From an uncultured Thermoplasmata archaeon (lineage in GTDB: Archaea; Thermoplasmatota; Thermoplasmata; Halarchaeoplasmatales; Halarchaeoplasmataceae): a DNA stretch of 64,000 bases. The stretch covers positions 69,776 through 133,775 of the forward strand of contig CAYWJQ010000006.1 in assembly GCA_964458595.1 (NCBI GenBank). The letters run 5' to 3'. Positions 46,335 through 64,000 of this stretch are shown one piece after another. Position numbers and translations under genes: made by a program. The notes under the pieces are model-generated. The model was not told where the DNA came from. It ran no database searches and saw nothing but the letters and a program-made list of their open reading frames with translations. The number at the start of each line of letters is the position of its first letter. Position 1 is the first letter of the stretch.

Positions 46335-49300
46335 TCATACTTTTTTCAGTCTCACTTCGAATCTGGCACCGCCCAGTTCCGAGTCTTTCACATCTATCTT
46401 CCCATCATATATATTTATCAGCTTATCGACAAGGAACAGTCCCAATCCGGTCCCCCTATCCGCGTCAGTGGTGAATCCTCTTTGGAATATCTTGTCCTTC
46501 TTCTCGTCGGATATACCTTTACCGTCGTCTTCTATTATACATATGCCTTCATCATCGGTCTCTTCGATTTTTATATGGATCTTCGTACCTTCAGAGTACT
46601 TGATCGAGTTCTCTATTATGTTTGAAAAGACCTCCTGTAAGAGCGGACCAGCTTTTACTCTGCAGTCTTTTTCACAGTCCATGGTGATCTCCATTTCTAT
46701 ATCCATCATCTGGTCCTGCAGAGCACCGACCGCATCGTGGAAAGTACTCTCCATACTGATCTCACCGATCTCTTCGTTGTTCGCTTCTCTAAGAGTCCTG
46801 ATCTTTTCTATCAGTTCTACGCTGCTCCTCACGCCTTTTTCAGCTTTCAACAAGTATTCCTCCGCATCCCCCGAAAAATCGATCTCCTCTTTCATCAGAT
46901 GGAGATAACCCTCTATCACCTGGATCTTGTTCCTTATGTCGTGTCTCAACAGAGAATGAAGGAATTCTTCTCTCTCCTTGGCCTCCTTCCTTTCGGTTAT
47001 ATCTTGAACGTAACCTACCGTTCCACTAACCTCTCCTTTACCGTCTCTGTAAGGCGTTGCACCCATTATAACACTCACTGACTCGCCGTTTTTCTTTTTC
47101 AACTCGGTCTCGTAGACTTCGCTGAGTCCTTCCTTACGGCTTTTGGTTTTCCCACTTATCTTTTCATAAACATCTTCCGAAGTGATCTCCGATACGTTTT
47201 TACCCATAATTTCTTCTTTATCGTAACCCAACATCTCAGCAAATCTATCGTTAGCAAATATTAACTCGTCTTCAAGATCGGTTATCGTGACTCCCACTAC
47301 TGAATTTTCTATTATGGACCTGTACCTCTCCTCGCTATCTATTAGCTGCTGCTTCCTCTCTTCTCTCTTCACTATGCTGGTCAAGATTTCGACCACCGCT
47401 TCGAGAAGCTTAACCTCTTCTTCTAAAAAGATGCCGACATCTTCTTTGGGCCTTTCTTCTAAATAATTGACTTGGATAGATCCTCTCACGCTGTCGTCGA
47501 TCGATAATTTCTTTTTCAAGTTCCTCCCGCTTTCTTCATAATCTTCACTTTTGTATTCATCGTCGTCGAACACTATTTTAGCGCTTGTAACTTCCGGGTA
47601 CTGGAAAGCCTCGGGTATCATCTGCGCAGTTTTTCCAAATATATTCTCCAGTTCGATCTCGGGTTTCTGGGATAAACGCAGGATACTGTAAAGAAGATTG
47701 AGTTCTTTCTCACGTTCTTTTCTATCTTTTATATTTCTAGCCACGCTTAGGACCGCGGGTTCTCCTTGGTAAGAGATGTAGCTAGAATTGATCTCTTCCG
47801 GTATTTTTCTTCCTTCTTTGGTAACATGGACGGTCTCGAATATCAATTCTTTTTTGTCTTCGATATCTTTAATTTTTTCTTTGATGTCTTTTGAATGTTC
47901 AGCCGTATCGATATCTCCAGGCCCCTTCTCTAATAATTCTTCTCGAGTGTAACCCAATCGATCGACCGCTTCTTGGTTTACCTTCAAAAAGTTTCCGTCC
48001 ATATCATGGATAAAGACCGCATCGTTCATACCCTCGATCAATTTCTCGTAATCTTCTTTTGCTTGAATGAGTTTTTCTTCCATCTCTTTTCTTTTAGTGA
48101 TATCCTCCGTAAAAGCGATGGTTTGATCCTCCAATTTAACGACGTTTACGATCCAGTGTCCGTGACTACCGTCTTTCTTAAGAAAAGGAATTTCTATTCT
48201 AGTTTCTCCCGTTTCTAGCAATTCCTCGAAACTTTCCTCAGCCTTCTCATGATGTTCAGGAGGAGTCAGATCAAATATATTCATGCCGATAAGTTCCTCC
48301 TCAGAATATCCGGTCATCTCACATGCGCTGTCGTTGACTTCGATGTATTCACCCTCTAAATCCGTCACGAGTACTCCGATAGGAGCATTTCTCACGTAAC
48401 TTTGAAACTTTTCCTTTGTTTTTTCTAGTTCTACCTCTCTTTCTTTTCTTTCCGTTATATCAGTTGCGGTACCCATCAACCGTTCTTTTCCTTCGCTATC
48501 TTCTATCTTTTCGGCTCTTATCTCTACCCAGATCCACTGACCGTTTTCATGCTTTATCCTCAGATCGACATTATTCAGCGTTCCGCTCTCGATAGCTTCG
48601 TTCAAATAAGTTTTAGCCTCGGATATATCTTCGGGATGTACTCGTTCTAAAAGCGAATCGAAAGTATGTTCTGAAGTCGAACCCGGTTCAAGCCCTACCA
48701 ATTTTTCCATAGACTCGTACCAAACATTCAATTCATCTTCGATGTTATATTCCCAGATACCTGTGTCTGTCGTATCTAAGGCCATCTGAAGTCTTTTCTT
48801 CGTTTTCTTGAGTTCATTTTCCGCCTTTTTCCTTTTGGTAACATCTCTGCCGATCACTATCTCTCCTTCAAAACCTTCTTCTTCGAATACGGCGACATTT
48901 ATTTCGGCATGAACTATATCTCCTTCTTTAGTGGTCAATTCCACGTCATATGGAGGAATCTTTTCTCCACTTTTTCTTTTTTTGAATCGTTCCATAGTCT
49001 TTTCCTGGTACTTTTCGGACAAGAAGGGGGCCTCTAGAAGCGATTTTCTCAGGATCTCGTCTTTTTCATAACCCAGTTTTTTTACCGCAGCATCATTCAC
49101 ATCCTGGAAAATTCCTTCTTTATCCAATAAAAACGTAGGATCGGGAGACGCGTTGTAGATTTTTTTGAATCTTCTTTCGGATTTTTCGAAACGCTTCTCG
49201 GCTATTTTTCTATCCGATAGATCTCTGATATTGCATTGTACCACCTTTTTGCCGCCAACTTGATAGGTGTTGCTCACGAACTCGACCGGCGTTTCCTCGC

Positions 49301-49970
49301 CTTCTTTAGTTTTCAGAGGCAGATCTTCATATCTAATGTAACCCTCATTGGTCAGCTCATCGAATCTTTTCTTGTTCTCGGCCACATTTTTGAAAGAACC
49401 GATCTGCCAGAGTTTTTTCCCGATCAGTTCTTCTTTGGAGTAACCGAGAAGCTCCTGGATGTACGGATTCGCATCCTCGATCTCCCCGCTTTCCGCATCG
49501 ATTATCAGCATCCCGTCATGAGCGCTCTCGAATAATCTCCTGTATCTCTCTTCACTTTCTTTTACTTCTTTCTCTGATTTTTTAGACTCCCATTCTTGGA
49601 CTATCGAATCCGCGAGCACTGCGAATTGACTTTTCGGCGACCCTCCTTTCTGTAGGTATCTTTCTGCTCCGAGATTGAGAGCTTTCATCGCGACTTCCTC
49701 TCTACCTTTACCCGTGAATAAGAGGAAAGGGATCTCATTTTTTCTCTCTTCTCTAACTATCTCTAAGAACTCTAGACCGTCGATCTCTGGCATCTGGTAA
49801 TCTGAGACTATGACGTCGAAATCCTCGTCGTCCAATAACTCTAAGGCTTTCTCCGCCGACGAAACAGGGATTATATCCAATCTTTCATCTTCTCTTTCTA
49901 AAAATACCTTAGATTGGTCTAACAGACCTCTTTCGTCGTCCACGAAAAGAACTTTGATATCCTCATGCAT
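46335..49970 (-). CDS. Hybrid sensor histidine kinase (N-terminal receiver, multiple PAS/PAC modules, HisKA and HATPase)
   Basis: Receiver VLFVDDE...DYQMPEIDG; repeated PAS-like units; H-box HSLLRHDIRNK; ATPase G-boxes DDGKGI and GTGLGL; 1211 aa. Confidence 0.85.
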   Translation of the reverse strand: MHEDIKVLFVDDERGLLDQSKVFLEREDERLDIIPVSSAEKALELLDDEDFDVIVSDYQMPEIDGLEFLEIVREERKNEIPFLLFTGKGREEVAMKALNLGAERYLQKGGSPKSQFAVLADSIVQEWESKKSEKEVKESEERYRRLFESAHDGMLIIDAESGEIEDANPYIQELLGYSKEELIGKKLWQIGSFKNVAENKKRFDELTNEGYIRYEDLPLKTKEGEETPVEFVSNTYQVGGKKVVQCNIRDLSDRKIAEKRFEKSERRFKKIYNASPDPTFLLDKEGIFQDVNDAAVKKLGYEKDEILRKSLLEAPFLSEKYQEKTMERFKKRKSGEKIPPYDVELTTKEGDIVHAEINVAVFEEEGFEGEIVIGRDVTKRKKAENELKKTKKRLQMALDTTDTGIWEYNIEDELNVWYESMEKLVGLEPGSTSEHTFDSLLERVHPEDISEAKTYLNEAIESGTLNNVDLRIKHENGQWIWVEIRAEKIEDSEGKERLMGTATDITERKEREVELEKTKEKFQSYVRNAPIGVLVTDLEGEYIEVNDSACEMTGYSEEELIGMNIFDLTPPEHHEKAEESFEELLETGETRIEIPFLKKDGSHGHWIVNVVKLEDQTIAFTEDITKRKEMEEKLIQAKEDYEKLIEGMNDAVFIHDMDGNFLKVNQEAVDRLGYTREELLEKGPGDIDTAEHSKDIKEKIKDIEDKKELIFETVHVTKEGRKIPEEINSSYISYQGEPAVLSVARNIKDRKEREKELNLLYSILRLSQKPEIELENIFGKTAQMIPEAFQYPEVTSAKIVFDDDEYKSEDYEESGRNLKKKLSIDDSVRGSIQVNYLEERPKEDVGIFLEEEVKLLEAVVEILTSIVKREERKQQLIDSEERYRSIIENSVVGVTITDLEDELIFANDRFAEMLGYDKEEIMGKNVSEITSEDVYEKISGKTKSRKEGLSEVYETELKKKNGESVSVIMGATPYRDGKGEVSGTVGYVQDITERKEAKEREEFLHSLLRHDIRNKIQVIEGYLHLMKEEIDFSGDAEEYLLKAEKGVRSSVELIEKIRTLREANNEEIGEISMESTFHDAVGALQDQMMDIEMEITMDCEKDCRVKAGPLLQEVFSNIIENSIKYSEGTKIHIKIEETDDEGICIIEDDGKGISDEKKDKIFQRGFTTDADRGTGLGLFLVDKLINIYDGKIDVKDSELGGARFEVRLKKV

Positions 49971-51201: not shown

Positions 51202-52028
51202 TTGTCTTTAAGAGAGCGTAAGGAAGAATTAGCCGTTTATATCACTGTAGCGATATTGCTGATATTGACGATCTGGTTCTTTTTTGGCGCTTCTAGAGAA
51301 ACGTTAGATTTTGAAAAAGCTACTATCCTCATAAATAACTCGGAAGGTGAGAAAATCAACATAACCGTCGAGATCGCCGACGAAACGGTGGAACAGAAGC
51401 AGGGTTTGATGCACAGGGACTCGCTATGCGAGGACTGTGGGATGCTGTTCGTATATGATGAGAACGTTAACCACGGTTTCTGGATGAAGAACACTAAGAT
51501 ACCTTTATCTATAGCCTTTATACTTTTGTTAAGGCAGAAAACCCTATGGCTCTGCCGTAGGGATGAAAGCCACTTTCACTCACCCCTATGATGAACACTT
51601 AAATATCTGGGGTTGTATGTTTTAAGTGGAGTTCCAAACACGGGCCTGCAGAAAGTTTGAGAAGACCACTTTTGCAGGCAGGGGCCGATCATGAATCGAC
51701 ATGGTGTTGTGGCGCGGCCCCCTGAGCTGGAAGCGACGACCCGACCTCTGTGTTTGGGTAAAACAAAAGTCGGCGAGCGGAATGCAACTTCCGGGCTTGT
51801 GCAAGGAGTCAATGGCTCCATAGGAAGCCTCACCCTTCTAGGGTGAAGGAGGACGTCACATCAGAAAACGGTACGATAATGGAGATCCAGCACATGGAGC
51901 CCGAAACCATGGAGACTCATACGCCGGCAGAACCCTATCGGTACGCTCTAGAGGTCAACCGTGGATTCTTTGAGGAGAACAGTATCGATATTGGAGACAA
52001 GGTTAAAATACCGGATAGATATAAATGA
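51202..52028 (+). pseudogene. DUF192-family gene split into two reading frames by a GC-rich structured insert of about 335 bp
   Basis: N-terminal part (51202-51522) carries QGLMHRDSL...GMLFVYDE...FWMKNTKIPLSIAFI; C-terminal part (from about 51858) carries ENGTIMEIQHMEP...PYRYALEVNRGFF...IDIGDKVKI in a different frame. Confidence 0.55.
51523..51857. other. GC-rich, hairpin-dense insert inside the DUF192 gene (candidate MITE, intron or embedded ncRNA)
   Basis: Local GC visibly higher than the flanks; hairpins ccctatgg-ctctg-ccgtaggg (51542-51562), ctgcagaaag/cttttgcag (about 51647-51685), cacccttctagggtg (51831-51845); 5' cctatgg (51543) is complementary to 3' ccatagg (51818). Confidence 0.4.
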
Positions 52029-52095
52029 TCGAGGGATTAGAATAAGTTCGGGTTTAAAGACTTTCAATACCGCTGCCTAAGATCCGTTTATATGA

Positions 52096-52752
52096 TCATC
52101 TCACTTCGACTTTGATATCCGTTTGTTTTTCCAACCTATCTTTGAATTCCTTCGGATCAGCGTCTCTCTCGTGGAAAGGCACCGCTACATCCGGTTCGAT
52201 CACTTTAGCGGCCTCTATCGCTTCCTCTATATCCATGGTGTAGGTCCCGTCTATCGGTAAAAATGCGGTATGTATTCCATCAAGATGGACCATCTCCGGT
52301 ATATTCTCGGTATCTCCCGGATGATAGATGGTTTTTCCCTCTGCAGTTATCAAGTAGCCGACACCTTCACCTTTAGGGTGAAACGGCTCGCCGGAATCTC
52401 TTTTTCTTTTGCGGTTGTAAGCGTGTACCGCTCTAACGTCTATGTCGTCCAATTCCACGGAATCTCCGGGATCGACCGTGATGAAATCACTCTCTATCTT
52501 GTCAGAGCAGATCTCGGGTGCTACTATCTTGGTATCTTCGTCCAAGATATGTTGAAAAGTCGAAGGATCGCAGTGGTCGTGATGGTCGTGGGTTATCAGT
52601 AACACATCAGCCTTCTCTCCCTTCTCATAAGATTCCTTCACCTCGTCCGGCATCGAGTCAGAGTAGTACGGGTCGATATAGGCGGTTTTATCTTCAGTTC
52701 CTATCTTTATGGACGAGTGACCGATCCTATCTATTTCAACCATGTCTTTCAC
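52096..52752 (-). CDS. Metallo-beta-lactamase-fold metal-dependent hydrolase
   Basis: HxHxDH motif LLITHDHHDHCD; 218 aa. Confidence 0.8.
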   Translation of the reverse strand: MKDMVEIDRIGHSSIKIGTEDKTAYIDPYYSDSMPDEVKESYEKGEKADVLLITHDHHDHCDPSTFQHILDEDTKIVAPEICSDKIESDFITVDPGDSVELDDIDVRAVHAYNRKRKRDSGEPFHPKGEGVGYLITAEGKTIYHPGDTENIPEMVHLDGIHTAFLPIDGTYTMDIEEAIEAAKVIEPDVAVPFHERDADPKEFKDRLEKQTDIKVEVR

Positions 52753-52803
52753 CGTAAAAGTAGAATTTTTTCTCGCTAATAAATCTAATGTAAGATATTG
52801 AAC

Positions 52804-53307
52804 TTACCTGATCCGATCGAGTTTTCTAGAGTACTTCTCCAGCTCTTCTATATGTTCTTCTTCCTCTTGCATTAGTTCTGAAAGTATTTCAAAAAATTCG
52901 TCGGGATCGTCTCCTTCCCAGACTCTTTCTACAAACTCTTGAGATGTGTTCGAGTATATCTTTTCGTAAAGGTCATGAGCCAATTTATCGTTCTCATAAA
53001 CTTCGTACAAGATCTCCACGTCTTGAGAGTGTTTTTCAAAGCTTACGGATTCACGGGCTCGAGAATTTTGCTTGATAGTTTCTAGATCGAGTCCCTTTAG
53101 ATTTGAAATCAATCCCTTCAAATTACCTTTGTGTCCTTCCGACTCGTGAGATAACTCAAAGAGGGTATCCTTGTATTTATCATCTACAGAAGTATAAGCT
53201 TCCCATTGTGTCACGCCTTCAAACTCGGATTCGATCCAGTACGCTCTCGCCAACAGCGATTCGAGTTCGTCCAAGGTTTCAATAACTACTTCTTTTGAGG
53301 GAGACAT
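52804..53307 (-). CDS. Ferritin-like/rubrerythrin-like diiron protein
   Basis: Paired E...ExxH motifs (YWIESE, SHESEGH, QEEEEHIEE). Confidence 0.5.
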   Translation of the reverse strand: MSPSKEVVIETLDELESLLARAYWIESEFEGVTQWEAYTSVDDKYKDTLFELSHESEGHKGNLKGLISNLKGLDLETIKQNSRARESVSFEKHSQDVEILYEVYENDKLAHDLYEKIYSNTSQEFVERVWEGDDPDEFFEILSELMQEEEEHIEELEKYSRKLDRIR

Positions 53308-53614
53308 GTTTATCTGAAGTTATTTCTGACATTATATAAGTTTTGGAGTGACTAGGAGAATATATTAGAGTGTTTGTGCTAGATCGTCTTCGACTGTATC
53401 ACTTTTTCGGGTTCTAGAACTTTAACTGCTTATATCGCCTTCTCTATATCTATGGTGTAAGTCCAGTCTATTGATAAGGATTTTGTGTGTATCTCTTTTA
53501 GAGCCTCCATCATTCGATTACTATGAAGGTCGGTGATAGATTTTGAAAAGCCTGCGTCATTGAAAAATTTGAATTTGGTAAAAATCTAAATATCGACGAT
53601 GGATAAAAAAAGCC

Positions 53615-54904
53615 ATGAGTGAAGATTGGATCCGCGATTTTTCGAGATACGTCAGGAAACGATTTCCTTCACTTGATAACGAAGTAAATGGACAGCCAAT
53701 CGCCTATCTGGATGGACCCGGTGGGTATCAGGTACCACGACGTGTTATGGATGCCGTAGAAGATTACCTTACAAATTTTAACGCGAATAGGCACGGGCAG
53801 TTTAAAACTAGCCAGAAAACTGATGAAATCATCTTGAACGCTAGAAAGATATTTGCCGATTTCTTCAATTGTTCGGAGAAAGAAGTGATCTTCGGAGGGA
53901 ACATGACCACACTGAATTTCATGTTAGCGCAGGCTCTTAAAAAAGAAATAGAGGAAGGAGAAAAGATCCTCATAACCCAATTGGATCACGCGGGAAACAG
54001 GACTCCCTGGGAGACGCTAGAAGATCAGGGTGTGATAGTGGAAGAGGTCGAGATAGATACGGATGATCTGACCCTCGATATGGATGATTTTCGGTCTAAA
54101 CTGACCGAAGATACCGGATTGGTCGCGGTCACTTACGGCTCCAACGCGGTAGGAACAGTTCCCGACGTCAAGGAGATGATTCAAGAATCTCATGATGTAG
54201 GCGCTTATACCGTGGTAGACGCGGTCCATTACGCCGCTCACTTCCCGATAGACGTGAAAGATATAGACACGGATTTCTTACTATGTTCAGCCTACAAGTT
54301 CTTCGGTCCCCATATAGGTATCATGTACGCTAAGAAGGATATCCTTTCCCGGTTGGACACTCTTAAAGTCAGACCTCAAAAAGATACGCCGCCGGATAAA
54401 TTCGAGACCGGTACGCTCAACCACGAAGGCATCGCCGGTGCGAAGGAAGCGTTTCAGTTTATCGCAGACGCGGGAGACAAGTTTTCGTCACAGCTGGACA
54501 AAGAAGTATCTGACTCTACTTCGGAGAGAAGAAAAAACATAGTCGCTGGATTGAAGATATTTGAAAAATATGAGCGAGTTTTGACCGATAGATTGGTGGA
54601 CGGTCTGTTAGAGATACCGGAAATACAGTTGTATAGACCTCCAAAAGATGTGCAGAGTACATCTACGGTTTCGTTCACACACGAAAGATACAGTCCTGAG
54701 CAGATAGCCTCGTATCTCGCTGATAGAGGTATATTCGTGTGGGACGGCGATTTTTACGCTACCAGGTTGGTCGAAGTTTTGGGTCTGCAGGATGAAGGAG
54801 GCCTGGTCAGGATAGGTATTTCACCCTATAATACTGAGGAGGAAATCGATAGGACCGTAGAGGCTCTTAGAGATACTGAATCGTTGAGAGAAGAACTCGA
54901 TTAA
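53615..54904 (+). CDS. Class V aminotransferase / cysteine desulfurase-like PLP enzyme
   Basis: PLP-lysine context LLCSAYKFFGPH; 429 aa. Confidence 0.75.
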   Translation: MSEDWIRDFSRYVRKRFPSLDNEVNGQPIAYLDGPGGYQVPRRVMDAVEDYLTNFNANRHGQFKTSQKTDEIILNARKIFADFFNCSEKEVIFGGNMTTLNFMLAQALKKEIEEGEKILITQLDHAGNRTPWETLEDQGVIVEEVEIDTDDLTLDMDDFRSKLTEDTGLVAVTYGSNAVGTVPDVKEMIQESHDVGAYTVVDAVHYAAHFPIDVKDIDTDFLLCSAYKFFGPHIGIMYAKKDILSRLDTLKVRPQKDTPPDKFETGTLNHEGIAGAKEAFQFIADAGDKFSSQLDKEVSDSTSERRKNIVAGLKIFEKYERVLTDRLVDGLLEIPEIQLYRPPKDVQSTSTVSFTHERYSPEQIASYLADRGIFVWDGDFYATRLVEVLGLQDEGGLVRIGISPYNTEEEIDRTVEALRDTESLREELD

Positions 54905-55953
54905 AGATATTTGAAGCTGGATCCCGTTAGAGGGATCAAAACTTTTTCACCTTTATCGAATTGCTGTTTGGTTTGAAGATCTTTGAAAGCGGCGTAAGCT
55001 GTGGCGGAAGTAGATTCGACCAGAAAGCCCATCTTTGCCAGCTCACGTTGAGCCCGCTCGATCTTTTCGTCACTTACGGATACCGAAAAACCATTGGTTT
55101 CCTTCAGTACTTCTTTCATCTGATCCTTTCTGGGCGGGTCCGTGATCTCTATACCCTTCGCCAATTCGCTTTTTTCCTCACTTTTCTTTTTAAGGCTTTC
55201 AAATCCTTTCCCCTCGACAGCTATCAGTTTGGGTATCTCTTCCATCACTCTGAATTGTTCAAGCTCTTTAAAGCCCTTATATAATCCTAAAAGTAGTGTT
55301 CCGCTGCCCGTCGGGACTAAAACCTGATCTATGTCCATTCTCTCTCCGATCTCGTATGCTGTTATTTTCGTACCCTCGATAAAAAAGGGATTTAACCAAT
55401 GTGAAACGTATTGTCCGCGATCGAAATTCAGAGCTTTTTCATGAACGTCCATCCTCGACCCGGGGATTTTATGTATCTCCGGATCCAAAATATTCAAGAT
55501 CTTTTCTTTCGTTTTAGAGATCCCTTCGGGTACAAAGATATGGGTTTTCATCCCCTCCGCTCCGGCATACAAAGCGAGACTTATCGCCGCATTTCCGGAC
55601 GAATCCAAACTGACTTCTTCGATCCCGTTCTCCTTCAACTTCGCTATCGTCGCGTAAGTCCCCCTATCTTTGAAAGAGCCGCTGGGCATCAGATATTCCA
55701 ATTTGAAGACGACGATCACATCGTCGATCGTTTTTTCGATGTTAGGTGTGATAGATGGAGTAAGATCCGGGATATATTCTTTTTTTATCGGTAAGAAATC
55801 GAGATATCGTTCAGTGTCCGATTCTTCAGGATTCAGTAGCTCTTCGAACGAACGCGTGAATTCATTTTCTACTTCTAGGGTCCCACCGCAGTCACATCTC
55901 AATCGGAAATCATCGGGATAGTTTTGGTCGCAGTTTAGGCATTTCATCACCAT
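54901..55953 (-). CDS. Threonine synthase-like fold-type II PLP enzyme with N-terminal zinc ribbon
   Basis: N-terminal CLNCDQ...CDCGG ribbon; PLP-lysine motif PSGSFKDRG. Confidence 0.65.
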   Translation of the reverse strand: MVMKCLNCDQNYPDDFRLRCDCGGTLEVENEFTRSFEELLNPEESDTERYLDFLPIKKEYIPDLTPSITPNIEKTIDDVIVVFKLEYLMPSGSFKDRGTYATIAKLKENGIEEVSLDSSGNAAISLALYAGAEGMKTHIFVPEGISKTKEKILNILDPEIHKIPGSRMDVHEKALNFDRGQYVSHWLNPFFIEGTKITAYEIGERMDIDQVLVPTGSGTLLLGLYKGFKELEQFRVMEEIPKLIAVEGKGFESLKKKSEEKSELAKGIEITDPPRKDQMKEVLKETNGFSVSVSDEKIERAQRELAKMGFLVESTSATAYAAFKDLQTKQQFDKGEKVLIPLTGSSFKYL

Positions 55954-56249
55954 ACCGATCCCTGTATAGTATATTCTAGTTATAGGTTTTACTTCTTATA
56001 ATTTTTAGTCACTAATTGAATATCTCGACAAAAACTGGTACTATCTACGAAAAAATTTTCTTAAGGGGCTAAGGATGGACCAAAAAGGAAAACTATAAAA
56101 ATAATATTTTTTAAATTTAAATAAGTCATTTGTCTAAAAATTAAACTAAAAAATATTTTTCTAAACCCACTTCATAAGAATATAACAGTATTTATATCAG
56201 TAAAATATAAATAATTGTTTTTTTTAACACCTACCGTCGGGTCGAAAAA

Positions 56250-59200
56250 ATGAAAAGTAAACTGCTACAACTTACGGTTTGCGTGGTGATCGGGATCCTA
56301 GCTTTAACTGCCTTCTCTCCAGTAGCTAGAGGAGGAGTGTCTAAAGAATTAGAAGATTCGGTAGAAGATAGGGACGGCAATTTGCATAGTGCTTATATTG
56401 AGAATAAAAATATATATTATAAATTCGAAAGCGCAGATGGCAGAGATGAATTTAAGATTTTAATAAAGCAATGCAAATCTAAAGTTTGTAAGGCAAGACT
56501 GTCTATCGACGATAGTTTGATATACATCTCATGGTTGAGTTGTCATAGAGGGGAGTTAGAAATAAATTACTGCGGGGCTGAACTCGACTCTATCCGCGAT
56601 TGGACCTCAACTAGAACGGTAGATGCTGAGTTCAACAACATCTTGGATTATGATCTTCGGGTGAAAAAAGGTAGAATGAAAGTGATCCATGATGGAGAAA
56701 AATTGATGGAATGGCTGGGAGATATCGATGGTGACTTCATACCTGATATAGTAGACAAAGCCCCTGCAGGATATGATTTTGATGAGAGCTCGGTAACGGC
56801 GGACTTTGTCAAAAGTTATGAGGATATGGGGGTATCTCTGGGTGTTTATATACCTGAATCGGCTTGGAGAAGACCTGTTTTTTATAAGCGGACGATCAAA
56901 GTCGTGAGAAATGGGGATCGATTTTCTATAAGAGGGAACTTGCCTCGTGGAACTGAGCTATCCTTAAAATACAGAGGTGAAGATTTTTCCGATGAAGCCA
57001 GATTCTATAGAAAAGATTTTAGATCATATAAACCTGTCGAGAGCGGGATTGACGGACCAAACGATTATATATGGCTCGAGACCGACCGGACGGGGAGATA
57101 TACCATAAAAGATGCATCTAAAAGAGATTTTGACTCTGACGGGTTATCTGACCTCGTAGAGCTTTCTTCACCATCTGATAGAACTTTGACTGAAAAAGAT
57201 TTTTCATCAACCAAATTCGAAACTAATTCTATTTCCAAGCTCGTATTCGACAGAAATACACATGGAAACCTCTTCTGCAGCAGAGCATATATAGAATTGA
57301 AAAATATGGATGGTGAGAGTATTGACGGACTCGAGGTAGACGTCGGGAATGATGGTAAAACGGACTGGGAAGCCGTTGGGACCGTGAAAAACGAAGTGTC
57401 ATTCGGGAGGTTGAAGCTCGGCATCAACCTTTATTGGTTCAACCATTACGTCAATGAAAAGCCGAACGAAGTTACGATCCCGATAAGATTCGAGTCGATG
57501 GAAAACAGAGATGTAAAGATCACCGATGCCGAGATAGAATTTGAAGGTGTAGATACCAGCCCAGTTAAAGCTGATACAAATGGAGACGGTCTTTTGGATG
57601 GCTGGAAAGACGTCGACGGCGATATGGAATTTGAAAGAAAAGGTGAAGATGGTGTTTTAGCTACCTCTGACGACGAGACCCCTGGGGCCTTAGTCCGAGG
57701 TTTGGATCCAACCGAACTCGAGTATATGGGCAGGAAAGGAAGAGTGAGCTGGAACAGATACAAAAAAGGTGTCAATCAGGCGAATGGTAATCTATTCCTG
57801 AGCCATAACGACCTAAGTATAGATGCTCTTGGAATTAACATGGGCATAGGGAGACATTACAACAGTTTCGATCACGATAGAAAAGGCCCGCTCGGATATG
57901 GTTGGACGATGAATTATTTCGCAAACATCGTACCTTCAGAAGGAGATTTCGTCACATACTTTAACGGTGAGGGAACTGAATACAGGTTTGAATCTTTGGG
58001 AGGAGGTGATTATGAATCTCCCCACGGCTGCGGTTTCGATCTGGTCCGTGAAGAAGATGCATACAAACTGCGCTCCCCCTCTGGAAAGGTAAAAATATTC
58101 GATGAAAAGGGCAGATTGGCGCGTATCGAAGACAGGAACGAAAACTCACTCCACTTCACTTACGGTGAGAATGGAAATCTAAAAGAGGTGGAAGATGACT
58201 CCGGTTTGAGAATTGAACTTTATTATGAAGACGGAAAGTTGGTAAAAGTGAAGGGCCCGATAGGAAGGACCTGTCAATACGAATACAGCAAAGGCAGATT
58301 GACCAAATTCATCAATGCCGGCGGCAACGAGTACAGGTATATATACGGTCGAGATGATCTGCTGAAGACCATAATAAATCCCGTCGGATTATTCAAGTAC
58401 TATGATTATTCTTATTCTGGTCTACCCAAAGTCGAGAGGATAGTGAAAGGGAAGTATGAGAACGGGATGTACATGAATTATCATGTCGACTTTGAAGCCG
58501 ATTATGCCTATCCCTCTCATACCGCTTGGAAAGACGGAGAAGGTAATGAGATAACGAACAGTTTCGGTAAAGGCGGGGCCATGATAAAACACGAGAACCC
58601 CGACGGAACCGTTTCCTATCTAGAATATGACCTAGATCACGATCGTGTGAGGGTCGTTGATAAGAAAGGTTATGTTTGGCACAACGAATTCGGTCCGATG
58701 GGTAAAATCGTGAAGTCGAAGGATTCCACCGGAAACGTGACGAAAAAAGATTGGAAGAGAGTCGCCAACTCCGACGAATATATATGCGTAAAAGAATCTT
58801 CGACGGACAAGAGAGGCTACACGAGAGAAAGAAACTACGGCGAAGATTTCGATCTCAAGAGCACTGTGAAGAAAGACGGTGCGAGATACAGATATGTAAG
58901 GAATGACAAAGGTCAGCTGACTAAGTTGATAAAGCCTAACGGCGCCGTGACAAGATACGAGTACGACGAACACGGCAACAGGATAAAGAAGATCAACGCT
59001 TTAGGTCATGAGACTAGATATGTTTACAACGAGATAGGTTGGAAGAAGAAAGTGATCAAACCTAACGGTGCTGTTACGAAGTTCGAATATAACGAGCTTG
59101 GTGAAAGGACCAAGATAATAGACGATAAAGGCAACGTTATAAAGAAAGAATACGACGCGGTAGGGAATCTAGTGAAAAAGGTGAATAAAAGAGGGGGCGT

Positions 59201-61658
59201 GACTCTATATAAGTACGATGTTTTCGGAAATATGATATCAAAGACGGATCCTCTCGGAAATACGGTGAGGTACAGATACGATAACAACGGCAACAAAGTG
59301 CTGAAGATAGGTCCTCGGGGTTATCCGACCTATTATGAATATGACTGTATGGACAGGCTGGTCAAGAAGACCGACGCTTATGGGAATTCGGTAGAATACA
59401 GATACGACGAATTCCATAACAGGATCGAGACGATTGATAAGAACGGCAATTCATGGAAGAAGAAATACGATAAGATGGGCAGAGTGACAGCAAAACTGTG
59501 TCCTTACGGTAAAGCTATCCGATATGAATATAATTCCGAAGGTCAGGTCGTGAAGAAGATAGACAGGATGGGCTACGTTACTGAATACGAGTACGACAAG
59601 GTCGGTAGAGTAGTGAGGATGAAGAGGAAGCTTGGTCCGGAAGGTACGAACGTGACTTTGAGATACGACGAAGTCGGTAATCTGGTGAGCGTCACTCAGG
59701 CCGACGGAAACGACACTTCCACATGGCGGTACAAGTATGATCTTCTGGGAAGAAAAGTGAAGGAGATAAGTCCATTAGGTCACGTCGAGACCTACGATTA
59801 CGACAAGATGGGGGATATAGTCGAGTATACCAATGCGGAAGGCGAATCGACTCAGTATGATCATGACAGTTTGGGACGCCTTACTTCGGTGGAATTCCCC
59901 GATGGAAAAAGTGTCGAAATAACTCATGACTTGGATAAGAATATGAAGATACAGGAGTACACTTATCCCGATGGTTCTGCGGAAAGTAAAGCACCTCACG
60001 TGAAGAAAGTGATAGAGAAATACGATCTGTTAGGGAAGACTACTAAGAGAACTACAGTGTGGGGTTCAGGTGAAGAGAGATCTATCAGCTACGAGTATGA
60101 CAGCGCGGGCAACATGATAAAGATGAACGACCAGTTCGGGAGGACAACGGAATATTATTACGATGCTTTGAACCGACTCGATGCGGTCGTTGACTACGAC
60201 GGCGACGTCACAACTTACGAGTACGACGCTAAAGGACATTTAGTGAAGACCACGCTGCCTACAGGCACTCGAGTCTACAGGGACTACAACAAAGCCGATA
60301 AGCTGACCGAGCTAAAGAACGTGAAGTCCAACGGCGAGGTCATCTCCAGCTTCGAATACGGCTACAACTGGAACGGCAATATAGTGAGCGTGACCAACAA
60401 GCACGGCAACACTACACACTACAATTATGACAAGGAGAGCAGACTGACCTTGGTAGAATATCCGAGCGGATCGAAGATGAAATATAAATATGATAAAAAA
60501 GATAATTTGCTGGAAAAGAAACGTATCGTGGATGGTAAGATCGTGAATACCGTGAATAACGAGTACGATAAAGAGAACAGGCTGATAAGCTCGAACGACA
60601 AGACCTACAGCTATGACAAGGACGGCAACCAGATCCGAGCGGGCGATATTAACTTCGACTACATGACATCCTTCGTCAACGGCAAGAATGTGAAGAGGTT
60701 GAAGAGCGTGTCCGAAAATGAGGAACACGTGGCTTCCTACTCATACACGCTGGAAGGTCACCGAACCGGCAAGTCCTTGGATTCAGGAGAATCAGAGATC
60801 AGCTACCACTACAACGGCAGAAACGTCCAGTACGAACAGTGGAGCAGCGGCAGAACGGTCAGATACACGCATCCGATCGAAGGCGGAAGCAGCTGTTCCA
60901 GCTGCGGATGCGGTGGAAGCAGCGGCTTCTTCACCGACCATCCGATAAGCATGGAATTGAATGGTACGAAGTACTACTATCTCTACAACGGTCAGGGCAG
61001 CGTCACCGAGCTGATAAATGCGGATGAAGAAGTGGTGAACAAATATAGATACACGCCGTTCGGCAGTCCTAGATTGAAGGTAGAGAGCGTGTACAACCCG
61101 TACGAGTACACGGGTAGACGGTTGGATGAAGAGACCGGACAGTATTACTATCGAGCGAGGATGTACTCGACTGAGCAGTGCAGGTTCACGACGCAGGACC
61201 CCGCTGGGATGCAGGAAGGTCCGAACATGTATGCTTACGTGAGCAACAATCCGGTGAATCATCGTGATCCGAGCGGGTTAATAGCCCCTGATGCAGTTAT
61301 CGACGGCGGTGGTGGACTAGCGAATTGTCCAGAAGCGAATTATGATACGATTGAAGAGTGTGTAGATTATCATTGGTATGGTATGGGGGAAGCAGACGCC
61401 CGGGAATTCTGCCACAGTATCTGTTTGAATGAAAAAGGTACTGGTGGATGTACGTTCACCTCATATTATTGGGATTGTGTAGAGAGCAATTCATGGGACA
61501 TAGTACATGGAACGAGTATTGTAATGAGTTGTGCATCGGGATGCCTCATGACAGGTCCAGCTTGGCCCGAATGTGTGGGAGCATGTTTAATTGGTGCAGG
61601 CGTCGCTGCATCATCCCCATACGTAGGATGTTTGGTTGCAGCGGCTTATGTATGTTAA
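56250..61658 (+). CDS. Rhs/YD-repeat polymorphic toxin (signal peptide, YD repeats, Rhs core with DPxGL boundary, Cys-rich C-terminal tip)
   Basis: Signal peptide MKSKLLQLTVCVVIGILALTAFSPVARG; dozens of YD repeats (YEYDAVGNLVKK, YRYDNNGNKV ...); Rhs core KYYYLYNGQGSVTELINADEEVVNKYRYTPFGSP...PVNHRDPSGL followed by a unique 125-aa Cys/Gly-rich tip; 1802 aa. Confidence 0.85.
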   Translation: MKSKLLQLTVCVVIGILALTAFSPVARGGVSKELEDSVEDRDGNLHSAYIENKNIYYKFESADGRDEFKILIKQCKSKVCKARLSIDDSLIYISWLSCHRGELEINYCGAELDSIRDWTSTRTVDAEFNNILDYDLRVKKGRMKVIHDGEKLMEWLGDIDGDFIPDIVDKAPAGYDFDESSVTADFVKSYEDMGVSLGVYIPESAWRRPVFYKRTIKVVRNGDRFSIRGNLPRGTELSLKYRGEDFSDEARFYRKDFRSYKPVESGIDGPNDYIWLETDRTGRYTIKDASKRDFDSDGLSDLVELSSPSDRTLTEKDFSSTKFETNSISKLVFDRNTHGNLFCSRAYIELKNMDGESIDGLEVDVGNDGKTDWEAVGTVKNEVSFGRLKLGINLYWFNHYVNEKPNEVTIPIRFESMENRDVKITDAEIEFEGVDTSPVKADTNGDGLLDGWKDVDGDMEFERKGEDGVLATSDDETPGALVRGLDPTELEYMGRKGRVSWNRYKKGVNQANGNLFLSHNDLSIDALGINMGIGRHYNSFDHDRKGPLGYGWTMNYFANIVPSEGDFVTYFNGEGTEYRFESLGGGDYESPHGCGFDLVREEDAYKLRSPSGKVKIFDEKGRLARIEDRNENSLHFTYGENGNLKEVEDDSGLRIELYYEDGKLVKVKGPIGRTCQYEYSKGRLTKFINAGGNEYRYIYGRDDLLKTIINPVGLFKYYDYSYSGLPKVERIVKGKYENGMYMNYHVDFEADYAYPSHTAWKDGEGNEITNSFGKGGAMIKHENPDGTVSYLEYDLDHDRVRVVDKKGYVWHNEFGPMGKIVKSKDSTGNVTKKDWKRVANSDEYICVKESSTDKRGYTRERNYGEDFDLKSTVKKDGARYRYVRNDKGQLTKLIKPNGAVTRYEYDEHGNRIKKINALGHETRYVYNEIGWKKKVIKPNGAVTKFEYNELGERTKIIDDKGNVIKKEYDAVGNLVKKVNKRGGVTLYKYDVFGNMISKTDPLGNTVRYRYDNNGNKVLKIGPRGYPTYYEYDCMDRLVKKTDAYGNSVEYRYDEFHNRIETIDKNGNSWKKKYDKMGRVTAKLCPYGKAIRYEYNSEGQVVKKIDRMGYVTEYEYDKVGRVVRMKRKLGPEGTNVTLRYDEVGNLVSVTQADGNDTSTWRYKYDLLGRKVKEISPLGHVETYDYDKMGDIVEYTNAEGESTQYDHDSLGRLTSVEFPDGKSVEITHDLDKNMKIQEYTYPDGSAESKAPHVKKVIEKYDLLGKTTKRTTVWGSGEERSISYEYDSAGNMIKMNDQFGRTTEYYYDALNRLDAVVDYDGDVTTYEYDAKGHLVKTTLPTGTRVYRDYNKADKLTELKNVKSNGEVISSFEYGYNWNGNIVSVTNKHGNTTHYNYDKESRLTLVEYPSGSKMKYKYDKKDNLLEKKRIVDGKIVNTVNNEYDKENRLISSNDKTYSYDKDGNQIRAGDINFDYMTSFVNGKNVKRLKSVSENEEHVASYSYTLEGHRTGKSLDSGESEISYHYNGRNVQYEQWSSGRTVRYTHPIEGGSSCSSCGCGGSSGFFTDHPISMELNGTKYYYLYNGQGSVTELINADEEVVNKYRYTPFGSPRLKVESVYNPYEYTGRRLDEETGQYYYRARMYSTEQCRFTTQDPAGMQEGPNMYAYVSNNPVNHRDPSGLIAPDAVIDGGGGLANCPEANYDTIEECVDYHWYGMGEADAREFCHSICLNEKGTGGCTFTSYYWDCVESNSWDIVHGTSIVMSCASGCLMTGPAWPECVGACLIGAGVAASSPYVGCLVAAAYVC
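60278..61277 (+). repeat. Rhs 3' core segment, copy A (inside the main rhs gene)
   Basis: About 1 kb repeated with high identity at about 61895-62917 and, 5'-truncated, from about 63440 to the window end. Confidence 0.85.
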
Positions 61659-61684
61659 ATGGTAAAAATCATAAGGTGAAATGA

Positions 61685-61870
61685 ATGGGATGGAAAACAA
61701 CATCTAAACTAGTAATGGCGCTAATAGTAATAGCTTTCGTGATAGGCTACTATGTATTAGCAGGTATTGGTTATATTGAGTTGCCTAAATATTGGCAATT
61801 TGGCACTCTTCCTGTACATATTTTCTTAATCGGTATGGCCACGATTTTGTTATACCAAGTATTTGAATGA
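61685..61870 (+). CDS. Small two-TM protein immediately after the rhs toxin tip (candidate immunity protein)
   Basis: 61 aa, two hydrophobic helices, 27 bp after the rhs stop. Confidence 0.4.
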   Translation: MGWKTTSKLVMALIVIAFVIGYYVLAGIGYIELPKYWQFGTLPVHIFLIGMATILLYQVFE

Positions 61871-61894
61871 TAAATAATAAACACCATCACGTTT

Positions 61895-62917
61895 AAGCTA
61901 TACTAACTACCTACGGGCACGAAGATATTCAGGGACTACAACAAAGCCGATAAGCTCACCGAGCTAAAGAACGTGAAGTCCAACGGCGATGTCATCTCCA
62001 GCTTCGAATACGGCTACAACTGGAACGGCAACATAGTGAGCGTTACGGACAAGAACGGCAACACTACGAACTACGACTACGATAAGGAGAACAGGCTGAC
62101 CTCAGTGGAATATCCGACTGGATTGACGATGAAATATAAATATGATAAGAAAGATAATTTGGCGGAAAAGAAACGTATGGTAGATGGTAAGGTAGTGAAT
62201 ACCGTAAATAACGAGTATGATGAAGAGAACCGTCTGATTAGATCGAACGACAAGACTTACAGCTATGACAAGGACGGCAACCAAATCAGAGCGGGCGATA
62301 TGAGTTTCGACTATATGACCTCACGCATCAACGGTAAAAATGTGAAGAGGCTGAAGAGCGTATCCGAGAGCGGCGAACACGTAGCATCTTATTCTTACAC
62401 ACTGGAAGGACAGCGAACAGGCAAATATCTCGATTCAGGAGAGTCCGAGATCAGCTATCACTACGACGGAAGGAACGTCCAGTACGAGCAGTGGAGCAGT
62501 GGAAGAACAGTAAGATACACGCATCCGATCGAAGGCGGAAGCAGCTGTTCCAGCTGCGGATGCGGTGGAAGCAGCGGAGTGTTCACCGACCATCCGATCA
62601 GCATCAAAGTGAATGGGACGAAGTACTACTACCTTTACAACGGACAGGGAAGCGTGACCGAGCTCATAAATGCTGATGAAGAAGTAGTGAACAAATATAG
62701 ATACACACCGTTCGGCAGTCCTAGATTGAAGGTAGAGAGCGTGTACAACCCGTACGAGTACACGGGTAGACGGCTGGATGAAGAGACAGGACAGTATTAC
62801 TACAGAGCGAGGATGTACTCGACAGAGCAGTGCAGGTTCACGACGCAGGACCCCGCGGGGATGCAGGAAGGTCCGAACATGTATGCTTATGTTGGGAATA
62901 ATCCGGTGAATCACCGT
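61895..62917 (+). repeat. Rhs 3' core segment, copy B (orphan cassette)
   Basis: Nucleotide identity to 60245-61277 visible by eye (e.g. agggactacaacaaagccgataagct); diverges right after the NHRDPSG codons. Confidence 0.85.
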
Positions 62918-63184
62918 GATCCGAGCGGAATGGTGAGTATGAGCGAGTGTTTGACTTTATGTAGCTTGGGGGGTTGTGCAGCTCTATGCGGAATGGCAGC
63001 TTATGCTGGTCTTGTCGGTGCTGTAGTTGGTGTCGGCTGTGGGGTAGCATGCTGGTCTTTGGGTTGTGGGACTCTATGCGGGATAATACTTGGCGATGGT
63101 GGAGGCACCTGGCCTGATCCTATTGAACCCCCACAATGTGATCCTCAAACCCATCAATGTTTGATGCACAATGCAATATCGTAG
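61973..63184 (+). CDS. Orphan Rhs C-terminal cassette with an alternative toxin tip
   Basis: GTG-initiated ORF whose first 315 aa match the main Rhs C-terminal core and end at PVNHRDPSGM, followed by a different 85-aa Cys/Gly-rich tip (CSLGGCAALCGMAAYAGLVGAVVGVGCGVACWSLGCGTLCG). Confidence 0.75.
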   Translation: MKSNGDVISSFEYGYNWNGNIVSVTDKNGNTTNYDYDKENRLTSVEYPTGLTMKYKYDKKDNLAEKKRMVDGKVVNTVNNEYDEENRLIRSNDKTYSYDKDGNQIRAGDMSFDYMTSRINGKNVKRLKSVSESGEHVASYSYTLEGQRTGKYLDSGESEISYHYDGRNVQYEQWSSGRTVRYTHPIEGGSSCSSCGCGGSSGVFTDHPISIKVNGTKYYYLYNGQGSVTELINADEEVVNKYRYTPFGSPRLKVESVYNPYEYTGRRLDEETGQYYYRARMYSTEQCRFTTQDPAGMQEGPNMYAYVGNNPVNHRDPSGMVSMSECLTLCSLGGCAALCGMAAYAGLVGAVVGVGCGVACWSLGCGTLCGIILGDGGGTWPDPIEPPQCDPQTHQCLMHNAIS

Positions 63185-63189
63185 GTGGA

Positions 63190-63435
63190 ATGATGAGAAA
63201 TGGAAATCGATATGGGGAAAATTGGTTATTAAAAAATCTTAAAGAACGTTTTTTTACTACTATTGGGGTTGCAGTAGGGGTAACAATCCCATTTTATATC
63301 ACTAATATATACAGTAATCCACTCCAATTATTGCTCCTATTTGTTTCATCATATCTTATAGCTAATATCAGCGGATTAATCTGGTTATATGCTACAGAAA
63401 AAAGAAAGGATAAAAATAATGAAACCGACTTATAA
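63190..63435 (+). CDS. Small two-TM protein after orphan cassette 1 (candidate immunity protein)
   Basis: Hydrophobic helices FFTTIGVAVGVTIPFYITNIY and LLLLFVSSYLIANISGLIWLY; start chosen at internal Met after GGTGG. Confidence 0.35.
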   Translation: MMRNGNRYGENWLLKNLKERFFTTIGVAVGVTIPFYITNIYSNPLQLLLLFVSSYLIANISGLIWLYATEKRKDKNNETDL

Positions 63436-64000
63436 TTTATTAGATGGTAAAGTCATGGATCCATTACGAAACGATTACACCGAAGAAAGCAGGCTAATGG
63501 GATCAAATACGACAAAGATGGCAACCAGACAAGCCGGAAAGATGAGCTTCGACTACATGACTTCCTTCGTCAACGGCAAGAATGTGAAGAGGTTGAAAAG
63601 CGTGTATGATAGCAACGAACACGTGGCTTCCTACTCATACACGCTGGAAGGTCACCGAACCGGCAAGTATCTGCATGATGGTGAAGAAGAGATAAGCTAC
63701 CACTACAACGGCAGAAACGTCCAGTACGAACAGTGGAGCAGCGGCAGAACGGTCAGATACACGCATCCGATCGAAGGCGGAAGCAGCTGTTCCAGCTGCG
63801 GATGCGGTGGAAGCAGCGGAGTGTTCACCGACCATCCGATCAGCATCAAAGTGAATGGGACGAAGTACTACTACCTTTACAACGGACAGGGAAGCGTGAC
63901 CGAGCTCATAAATGCTGATGAAGAAGTGGTGAACAAATATAGATACACTCCTTTCGGCAGTCCTAGGTTGAAGATAGAGACGGTCTACAACCCGTACCAG
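63419..64000 (+). CDS. Second orphan Rhs C-terminal cassette, 5'-truncated relative to the main gene; runs off the window end
   Basis: In-frame translation from ATG 63419 gives ...FDYMTSFVNGKNVKRLKSV...GGSSCSSCGCGGSSG...KYYYLYNGQGSVTELINADEEVVNKYRYTPFGSPRLK, matching the main Rhs core; no stop before position 64000. Confidence 0.6.
   Translation, partial: MKPTYNLLDGKVMDPLRNDYTEESRLMGSNTTKMATRQAGKMSFDYMTSFVNGKNVKRLKSVYDSNEHVASYSYTLEGHRTGKYLHDGEEEISYHYNGRNVQYEQWSSGRTVRYTHPIEGGSSCSSCGCGGSSGVFTDHPISIKVNGTKYYYLYNGQGSVTELINADEEVVNKYRYTPFGSPRLKIETVYNPYQ

Follow-up and report, generated by a model that had tools for sequence, protein, structure and literature searches.

Does the repeat-rich segment at the 3' end of a 64,000-nucleotide stretch of DNA from an uncultured Thermoplasmata archaeon (GenBank assembly GCA_964458595.1, contig CAYWJQ010000006.1; hereafter the window, meaning the whole stretch analyzed) encode a polymorphic toxin system of the Rhs type, and, if so, what kind of toxin does it carry? 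A first-pass annotation had proposed that an 1802-amino acid secreted YD-repeat/Rhs protein is followed there by two orphan C-terminal cassettes and by small open reading frames (ORFs) with two transmembrane (TM) segments. Based on the analyses described below, we interpret the region as a chromosomal Rhs polymorphic toxin-immunity locus, in which a cage like those of WapA and Tse5 delivers disulfide-stapled membrane toxins and membrane proteins provide immunity, a reading to which we assign a probability of about two in three.

The rhs gene and its cassettes

The segment opens with a full-length rhs gene, the parts of which are as follows.

55954..56249, + strand: AT-rich intergenic stretch 5' of rhs with several TATA-like runs, probably the promoter region
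56250..61658, + strand: full-length rhs gene, 1802 amino acids, a single unbroken ORF
56250..56333, + strand: predicted Sec-type signal peptide, residues 1-28, MKSKLLQLTVCVVIGILALTAFSPVARG, with a hydrophobic h-region (Kyte-Doolittle value 2.3), presumably cleaved
56334..57767, + strand: clade-specific N-terminal region, residues 29-506, with DxDxDG-type motifs and without a Pfam match; presumed anchoring or target-binding domain
57768..57989, + strand: DUF6531 (PF20148, E=1.2e-12, residues 507-580), the N-terminal plug of Rhs cages, a role taken from Tse5 (PMC10684867)
57990..61049, + strand: YD/RHS-repeat shell, of probable extent, with RHS_repeat and YD_repeat_2x matches (repeat families D3 and D4)
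61050..61280, + strand: Rhs-associated core, or aspartyl autoprotease plug (TIGR03696), ending in DPSGL (61266-61280)

The description of a secreted YD/Rhs protein that ends its conserved part at DPSGL was borne out by matches to Rhs hidden Markov models (HMMs), by the position of the DPSGL boundary, and by the Sec-type signal. The protein scored 48.4 bits against PF20148 (cut-off 24.1), 291 bits against PF05593 (RHS repeat; 13 stretches, E=6.3e-89, cut-off 22), and 239 bits against TIGR01643 (YD_repeat_2x), and residues 1601-1677 matched TIGR03696 (Rhs_assc_core; 82.7 bits, cut-off 32.5, E=2e-23), with the match ending at the Leu of DPSGL. The two conserved-Asp motifs of the core are intact (QDPAG at residue 1649 and RDPSGL, with DPSGL at residues 1673-1677), and, by analogy with the Leu1168-Ile1169 site of Tse5, cleavage of the variable C-terminal tip is predicted between Leu1677 and Ile1678. 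The nearest solved structures are Rhs cages (Protein Data Bank (PDB) entries 8h8a, 7q97, and, for Tse5, 8cp6), and the Tse5 shell was matched by sequence at E=3.8e-45. At its N terminus, the protein is 30% identical over 577 residues (E=2e-67) to a 2081-amino acid Rhs protein (locus L013, from a Joint Genome Institute (JGI) metagenome), in which the signal peptide is conserved; a single-sequence AlphaFold2 model of the N-terminal region had a pLDDT of 35 and was unusable.

Other assignments of this protein were rejected. It scored 224.6 bits against the equivalog model for the enterobacterial RHS element core protein (NF041261), far from the cut-off of 2000, and a Tc toxin TcB/TcC identity was discarded when TccC and YenC2 were found to align to the C-terminal core region only and no Pfam TcdB or SpvB match was seen. 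There was no match to PAAR, VgrG, or a type VI secretion system (T6SS) component in the rhs product or in the large window ORFs scanned; a Sec-type signal is present instead.

A cysteine cluster, GGSSCSSCGCGGSSG, lies in the Rhs core just upstream of FTDHPIS (60882-60926, and again at 62534-62578 and 63776-63820). It occurs in every cassette, and CGSCGSCG-like variants of it are found in all relatives of the clade. The cluster could be a metal-binding or a disulfide site; to our knowledge, it is not a standard feature of Rhs proteins.

Downstream of the gene, the 3' core is repeated. When the window was compared with itself by blastn, three copies (A to C) were found, within the following features.

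60255..61276, + strand: copy A of the 1-kb 3' core repeat (by blastn), a recombination substrate
61907..63184, + strand: orphan cassette 1 (public protein P0002), made up of core copy B (61907-62928), DPSGM (62918-62932), and tip 2 (62933-63181)
63389..64000, + strand: orphan cassette 2 (the first 204 residues of public protein P0010), with core homology (copy C) from ~63441, extending past the window end

Copies A and B align over 1022 nt at 88.3% identity without gaps (60255-61276 and 61907-62928), whereas the alignments with copy C cover 495 nt, at 88.9% identity for copy A (60612-61106 and 63508-64000) and 86.7% for copy B (62264-62758 and 63508-64000). All are at E=0, and no additional core copy was present in window positions 1-56000. 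The first repeat had been placed at 61895-62917; it is present, at coordinates shifted by ~10 nt, and it carries, as claimed, a different tip, since tip 2 is unrelated to the tip of the main gene. The second had been described as starting at ~63440, truncated at its 5' end, internally deleted, and running off the window, all of which we also observed: homology begins at ~63441 at the protein and DNA level, and deletions of 16 and 2 nt relative to the other two copies produce a short frame-shifted stretch after which the frame is restored. Identity between copies is ~85-96% per 100-nt block up to 61254, drops to ~42% in the block that spans DPSGL (61255-61330), and stops exactly at DPSG. A stop codon is found immediately 5' of the first homologous codon of orphan 1, the first possible start of which is a GTG at 61973, and the orphans in the window are promoter-less, without a start or signal peptide of their own. 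Extension past the window end had been suggested as a way to obtain a third tip; this tip is supplied, as protein only, by the 390-amino acid P0010 record, the first 204 residues of which correspond exactly to 63389-64000, and when DNA beyond 64000 was sought, an exact 38-mer had no match in JGI metagenomes and exact look-ups of the main protein, orphan 1, P0003, and P0010 returned no record.

Six cassette cores were aligned, and the identity of each to the main gene was scored per 100-nt block. Values ranged from 64 to 100%, or from 79 to 100% in blocks wholly inside the shared homology. These alignments contain identical tracts of 280 nt between the main gene (60576-60855) and the P0007 orphan of a sister assembly, 173 nt between orphans 1 and 2, and 125 nt between the main gene and orphan 2. 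At a background of 88%, the chance of a 280-nt identical run is ~0.88^280, or ~1e-16 per start position. Because such tracts are improbable by chance, they indicate that the cassettes exchange sequence by gene conversion. This goes beyond the earlier claim, which was of an architecture that merely allows homologous recombination. The first ~35 nt beyond DPSGL are also common to the P0007 cassette and the main gene.

Two orphan cassettes had been recognized. Both are in the window, and the array appears to be much larger. A search with the orphan 1 protein returned P0002, which is identical to it, and P0010, and six more cassettes (P0003, P0004, P0005, P0006, P0008, and P0126) are recorded on a 152,588-bp NCBI contig of the same population as GCA_905333805.1 and GCA_905333455.1. 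If this contig is, as we infer, the source of the window, the genome would contain, besides one full-length rhs gene, eight or more orphan cassettes and a minimum of nine tips. A second run of orphans is held by L008, a 4328-bp contig of the sister assembly GCA_905333805.1, in the order PGF-CTERM-like beta-helix surface protein, P0004 cassette, 59-amino acid TM ORF, P0007 cassette, 95-amino acid TM ORF, and another cassette. The first 926 nt of L008 are absent from the window, so at least part of the array would form a separate cluster or be set apart from the window cassettes by another gene. The surface protein directly 5' of this run (L008 21-860) is beta-helix/FN3-like and has a PGF-CTERM-like tail, GSIPGFTSPLVMIALFLLLI.

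Related loci were found elsewhere. In L013, the gene for the 2081-amino acid Sec-signal Rhs protein is followed by orphans and membrane-protein genes. Orphan cassettes also occur in L004 and L005 (both from the metagenome-assembled genome (MAG) D3M20_1) and in L010 and L011 (JGI metagenomes), the last two adjoining archaeal ribosomal-protein genes, and a clearly degraded cassette is present in another MAG (L006). L002, considered as an orthologue of the full-length gene, was rejected and represents another orphan context.

The tips and their membrane partners

Beyond DPSGL and DPSGM, respectively, the main gene and orphan 1 each encode a tip followed by a small ORF, for which a ribosome-binding site (RBS) is given below.

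61281..61655, + strand: tip 1, 125 amino acids with 12 Cys, consisting of a GGGG linker, a 4-Cys acidic N-module, and a hydrophobic Cys/Gly/Ala C-module
61685..61870, + strand: imm1, a 61-amino acid two-TM ORF, candidate immunity to tip 1; RBS AAGGTGA at 61673-61679
62933..63181, + strand: tip 2, with 10 Cys, consisting of two CX3CX4CX3C hydrophobic repeats and a short C-terminal tail, without an N-module
63190..63435, + strand: imm2, an 81-amino acid two-TM ORF, candidate immunity to tip 2; RBS AGGTGG at 63183-63188

The tip of the main gene had been called a unique Cys/Gly-rich sequence. Its richness stands (12 Cys, 16 Gly, and 15 Ala; the Cys frequency in other long window ORFs is 0.8%), and its uniqueness does not, as most tips form one modular Cys-rich superfamily. 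Tips range from 84 to 151 amino acids, and in their alignment G10, G12, G13, C17, C28, C45, and C49 are invariant and C67 nearly so (14-16 tips). The N-module has the form GGGG-x-C(P)-x10-C-x(8-20)-C-x3-C and precedes a variable region in which Gly, Ala, Cys, and hydrophobic residues abound. An acidic N-terminal half is combined with a hydrophobic C-terminal half in 8 of 9 tips (peak 19-residue Kyte-Doolittle mean 1.5-2.2); the net charge of the N-terminal half is -8 to -15, and -1 in tip 2, which has no N-module. Eight of the nine also end in 40-60 hydrophobic Gly/Ala/Cys-rich residues with many small-xxx-small motifs. The Cys count is even in all nine tips (12, 10, 8, 12, 12, 12, 8, 12, and 8), and the CX3C motif occurs 17 times, as compared with 5.8±2.3 in composition-preserving shuffles, none of 2000 of which reached 17. 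We read the tips as helical hairpins stapled by disulfides. Another tip family found in the same Rhs clade (P0014, P0015, P0022, P0025, and P0028) has a W..H..GC.....GC motif, for example HFYTGCMMARFGC.

The two modules of the tips are found in different combinations. The P0003 and P0126 tips have near-identical N-modules and unrelated C-modules, the P0006 and P0010 tips have near-identical N-modules and divergent C-modules, and the N-modules of the main gene and P0008 are similar while their C-modules differ; conversely, the main gene and P0004 have similar C-modules and different N-modules. In tip 2, the C-module has two CX3CX4CX3C blocks that flank a hydrophobic turn; L004 encodes this pattern as well, there preceded by an N-module.

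Searches for known relatives of the tips returned little. The HMM comparison with domain libraries that the first-pass annotation had suggested was run for the tips and small ORFs against Pfam and NCBIfam at E<=10 and yielded nothing meaningful, and the tip alignment, searched as a profile against the PDB, had 0 matches. Word-indexed searches recovered only itself for tip 1 and no homologue for tip 2 among 5.8 billion clusters. When 1.84 billion representative proteins were scanned exhaustively with HMMER, tip 1 had three real matches, its own record included; its relatives are a 123-amino acid protein from Candidatus Saliniplasma (order Halarchaeoplasmatales, class Thermoplasmata; 42% identity) and a 190-amino acid metagenomic protein, and P0124 was rejected as a low-complexity false positive. 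The obvious candidate family was halocin C8, a Cys-rich and hydrophobic domain for which fusions to RHS proteins are known. Neither tip 1 nor tip 2, nor any of three tips of the related MAG D3M20_1 (L004b, L005/P0012, and L004a), matched TIGR04449 (cut-off 24 bits) at E<=10, under conditions in which a HalC8 sequence scored 61.5 bits (1e-16), and hhalign of the tip profile against HalC8 gave a probability of 0.3%.

A small two-TM ORF had been reported after each tip, and one was indeed found after both complete tips, each with an RBS. The imm2 RBS overlaps the orphan 1 stop codon; the length of 81 amino acids is counted from the RBS-preceded ATG, and the mechanically called ORF starts at 63157. 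Candidate immunity proteins span 59-95 amino acids. A Ca. Saliniplasma two-TM ORF of 70 amino acids, located after the tip-1 homologue P0122 and overlapping its stop codon, aligned locally with imm1 at z=11.4 relative to shuffles, and imm2 aligned with a 64-amino acid ORF after the degraded tip-2-like cassette in L006 at z=6.7; the remaining small-ORF pairs compared had no mutual similarity. Families of tips and of small ORFs thus co-vary from genome to genome. GC content is much lower in imm1 (0.35) and imm2 (0.30) than in the rhs cores and tips on either side (0.47-0.51), as would fit a separate origin of the cassettes.

The degraded L006 cassette, together with the deletions and frame-shifted stretch of orphan 2, would fit an inactive relic made of decaying rhs fragments and chance small ORFs. 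We hold this to be highly improbable, given that the 1802-amino acid ORF is unbroken, that its QDP and DPSGL catalytic motifs are intact, that the small ORFs have RBSs and homologues in the same position in distant genomes, and that all nine tips have even Cys counts.

The Ca. Saliniplasma locus (L009; JAWOGF010000038.1, 7461-16372) contains tip-1-family cassettes that are each followed by a two-TM ORF of ~70 amino acids. There, the repeated carrier is not an Rhs protein but a protein of 163 amino acids that has both a signal peptide and an acidic region (junction EEELMSPPMQPNGGGG). The same locus includes an Rhs-core remnant (9450-9779) and, downstream, a bacteriocin-like neighborhood of an Rce1-like CPBP protease, two PmbA/TldD proteases, and a MacB/FtsX transporter. 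Because tip and partner ORF occur together on both Rhs and non-Rhs carriers, the pair appears to travel between delivery systems. This co-travel is the strongest evidence that tip and small ORF form a cognate toxin-immunity pair, which we infer through guilt by association.

The same locus bears on the idea that the cassettes are stand-alone, ribosomally made archaeocin precursors that are expressed by themselves, their fusion to the Rhs core being secondary or vestigial. The Saliniplasma tip-1 homologues are annotated as separate ORFs of 115-124 amino acids, unfused, beside the secreted acidic carrier and close to the proteases and transporter listed above, and the orphans of the window genome contain in-frame start codons that gene callers have used (P0002-P0010). 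Set against this, signal peptides are missing from the window orphans, in which ~1 kb of Rhs core has been retained at a nucleotide identity of 85-92%. The homology of orphan 1 has a stop codon at its 5' edge, the 5.4-kb main gene is unbroken and is tied to the orphans by gene-conversion tracts, and an Rhs-core remnant is found in the Saliniplasma locus as well. We regard self-expressed precursors as improbable.

In the reading that we favor, a Rhs toxin-immunity locus, the rhs product would be exported by Sec, and its clade-specific N-terminal region would keep it at or close to the cell surface. The YD shell would enclose the hydrophobic tip, which the core aspartyl protease would free at Leu1677|Ile1678. 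On contact with the membrane of a neighboring cell, the tip might be released and insert as a disulfide-stapled helical toxin, acting as a pore or depolarizing agent, and the two-TM protein encoded directly 3' would neutralize the cognate tip in the membrane of the producer. A new tip-immunity pair would be brought into use when the expressed 3' core recombines homologously with the core of any orphan, and new tip chimeras would arise when a second breakpoint falls where the conserved 4-Cys N-module meets the variable hydrophobic C-module.

Several observations weigh against this interpretation. No delivery apparatus was identifiable within the window. The tips had no match among known toxin families, so that their proposed activity is deduced from composition, and composition with genomic context is what suggests that they are membrane toxins. 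An AlphaFold2 model of tip 1 built on a 14-sequence alignment, although all-helical with six helices, had low confidence (pLDDT 53). The P0005 tip of this genome and the P0012 tip of a related MAG are Cys-rich and hydrophilic, unlike a membrane toxin. Finally, the identity of the 152,588-bp contig as the source of the window, like the order of its cassettes, is taken from protein records.

Some of these points would suit an Rhs polymorphic system whose tips have a different action, with the cell envelope as target or with a role as receptor ligands or self/non-self recognition tags, and whose small TM proteins serve as receptors or partners and not as pore blockers. The tips resemble no known pore former, two of them are hydrophilic, and halocin C8, itself a Cys-rich hydrophobic archaeocin, has the cell wall as its suggested target (bioRxiv 10.64898/2026.07.27.741052). 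We consider such an activity unlikely, as 8 of 9 tips end in hydrophobic Gly/Ala/Cys-rich sequence with small-xxx-small motifs, the putative cognate partners are membrane proteins, and the logic of orphan arrays and tip-immunity pairs is that of toxins (PMC3150448).

A more detailed proposal for the toxins themselves is tentative. The tips may constitute a previously undescribed superfamily of archaeocin-like membrane toxins that are built from two modules and stapled by disulfides (GGGG linker, 4-Cys acidic module, and shufflable hydrophobic twin-CX3C/glycine-zipper module). Each C-module family would be matched by its own two-TM immunity family, and the pairs would move between Rhs cages and short Sec-secreted acidic carriers in Thermoplasmata.

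Assembly, host, and neighboring genes

Repeats in a MAG could reflect duplication during assembly, and an rhs gene in an archaeal bin could come from a bacterial contaminant. MAG assemblies do break at repeats, as L001 does inside copy A, and another matching contig, L007, has an unrelated 425-nt 5' end. The core copies are, in contrast, 83-92% and not 100% identical to one another (a difference of 8-17%), and they carry different tips. L001, an 8677-bp contig of GCA_905333805.1, corresponds to window 51761-60437 at 100% and joins housekeeping genes to rhs; L007, a contig of GCA_905333455.1, corresponds to window 61035-62588 at 100% and runs from the end of the core through tip 1 and imm1 into orphan 1, so that each of the two junctions is reproduced in another assembly. 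Relative synonymous codon usage of rhs correlates with that of other window genes at r=0.83-0.88 (other genes span 0.54-0.89), and its GC content is inside their range. The relatives in GTDB representative genomes, a set that does not include the genome of the window, are all uncultured Thermoplasmata MAGs, the closest relatives included. From copy divergence, independent assemblies, codon usage, and relatives, we conclude that duplication artefact and bacterial contaminant are both effectively refuted.

An archaeal genome had been supposed for this DNA, and the Thermoplasmata-only relatives agree with this, as do the DUF835 proteins, the FlaC_arch-containing protein, the ELP3-type radical-SAM protein, and the intron-containing tRNA encoded in the window. 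The tRNA (42411-42532, + strand) is 122 nt long and matches Rfam RF00005 at 54 bits over the full 71-position model, from which an intron of ~50 nt is deduced; ARAGORN found no tRNA in the window.

The first 425 nt of L007 are unrelated to the window; they contain a minus-strand, membrane-protein-like ORF and join the rhs 3' core at window 61035. Either the contig is a MAG chimera or a tip-1 cassette has an alternative junction in the genome. In L013, an IleRS-like (isoleucyl-tRNA synthetase-like) gene is directly 5' of the rhs gene. Other genes of the window include the following.

26209-30207, + strand: 1332-amino acid ORF, class-I aminoacyl-tRNA synthetase (tRNA-synt_1, Anticodon_1, DUF5915; IleRS-like) with a C-terminal helix-hairpin-helix (HhH) motif and DUF835, an unusual fusion
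5773-9045, - strand: 1089-amino acid protein with FlaC_arch, DUF835, and bactofilin domains
5951-7525, opposite strand: 524-amino acid ORF overlapping the 1089-amino acid gene, probably spurious
46335-49970, - strand: 1210-amino acid hybrid sensor kinase with a receiver domain, about six PAS domains, and HisKA/HATPase

Comparison with known systems

Orphan rhs-CT/rhsI modules are known from the enterobacterial Rhs loci of Dickeya, Yersinia, and Salmonella (Poole et al. 2011, PMC3150448). The archaeal locus has in common with these a full-length rhs gene ending in DPxGL, a variable tip, and a small downstream ORF for immunity (a candidate in the archaeon), as well as orphans that keep upstream rhs coding sequence, sometimes with an in-frame stop (PMC3150448). 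It differs in its archaeal host, in having a Sec signal and not PAAR/VgrG-T6SS export, in its at least eight orphans, and in its tips, which are Cys-rich hydrophobic peptides and not nucleases or other enzymes.

Tse5 of Pseudomonas aeruginosa is an Rhs cage with a pore-forming C-terminal fragment (PMC10684867, PMC9637101; PDB 8cp6). Its shell, which has a DUF6531 plug, chaperones an integral-membrane pore-forming fragment that is cut off at Leu1168|Ile1169 by two Asp residues, and Tse5 can bind bilayers and deliver its cargo unaided (PMC10684867). Common to both proteins are the DUF6531 plug, the YD shell, the aspartyl-protease Leu|Ile site after DPxGL (predicted here), and a hydrophobic C-terminal fragment, which in Tse5 is ~15 kDa, membrane-inserting, and chaperoned in the cage. 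Tse5 differs in that it is delivered by the T6SS, has no signal peptide, has a fragment that is not Cys-rich and is unrelated in sequence, and lacks such a large orphan array. By these comparisons, Tse5 appears to be the closest experimental model for the locus, and Sec-dependent WapA the closest model for export.

In Bacillus subtilis, WapA, with its partner WapI, is a Sec-exported YD/Rhs contact-dependent toxin. The features shared with WapA/WapI of Streptococcus suis (PMC12704120) are the Sec signal, the YD shell, a polymorphic tip, an adjacent immunity gene (a candidate here), and the absence of a T6SS. WapA has cell-wall-binding repeats and nuclease tips, whereas the archaeal protein has a clade-specific N-terminal region and peptide tips.

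RHS/YD-halocin C8 fusions are reported in Halorussus and Nitrolancea (Makarova et al. 2019, cited in bioRxiv 10.64898/2026.07.27.741052). These resemble the present locus in having an Rhs carrier and a small Cys-rich hydrophobic archaeocin-type domain that is also found in non-Rhs precursors; the tips analyzed here differ in failing the TIGR04449 model. Polymorphic toxin systems have been predicted in archaea, rarely, in ~15 of 225 genomes; the predictions include cassette arrays and, in Euryarchaeota, RHS repeats (Zhang et al. 2012, PMC3482391). Their tips are reported as mostly nucleases (Makarova et al. 2019, cited in PMC8416519), and the predicted systems were without experimental characterization as of 2021 (PMC8416519). 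Our literature search returned no paper linking Thermoplasmata with Rhs toxins, and no description of the tip superfamily or of the Thermoplasmata Rhs clade was found in the accessible literature.

Rhs loci with orphan CT/immunity modules are textbook knowledge in bacteria (PMC3150448), and the architecture of the locus is as expected from them. What appears to be new is a Thermoplasmata clade with an N-terminal domain of its own, the size and evident activity of the array, and a modular Cys-rich tip superfamily with small TM partners. The array, with at least nine tips, gene-conversion tracts, and shuffling within tips, is a clean natural example of how a toxin repertoire diversifies, and the occurrence of a candidate tip-immunity pair on Rhs and non-Rhs carriers speaks to the mobility of cassettes between archaeal delivery systems. 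As the tips are short and the candidate immunity proteins very short, specificity, disulfide dependence, and membrane activity would be cheap to test. If the proposal of a two-module toxin superfamily is true, the locus would offer a compact, synthesizable system for a first demonstration of contact-dependent or peptide antagonism in archaea. It may also bear on how Rhs cargo is delivered across the archaeal envelope without a T6SS.

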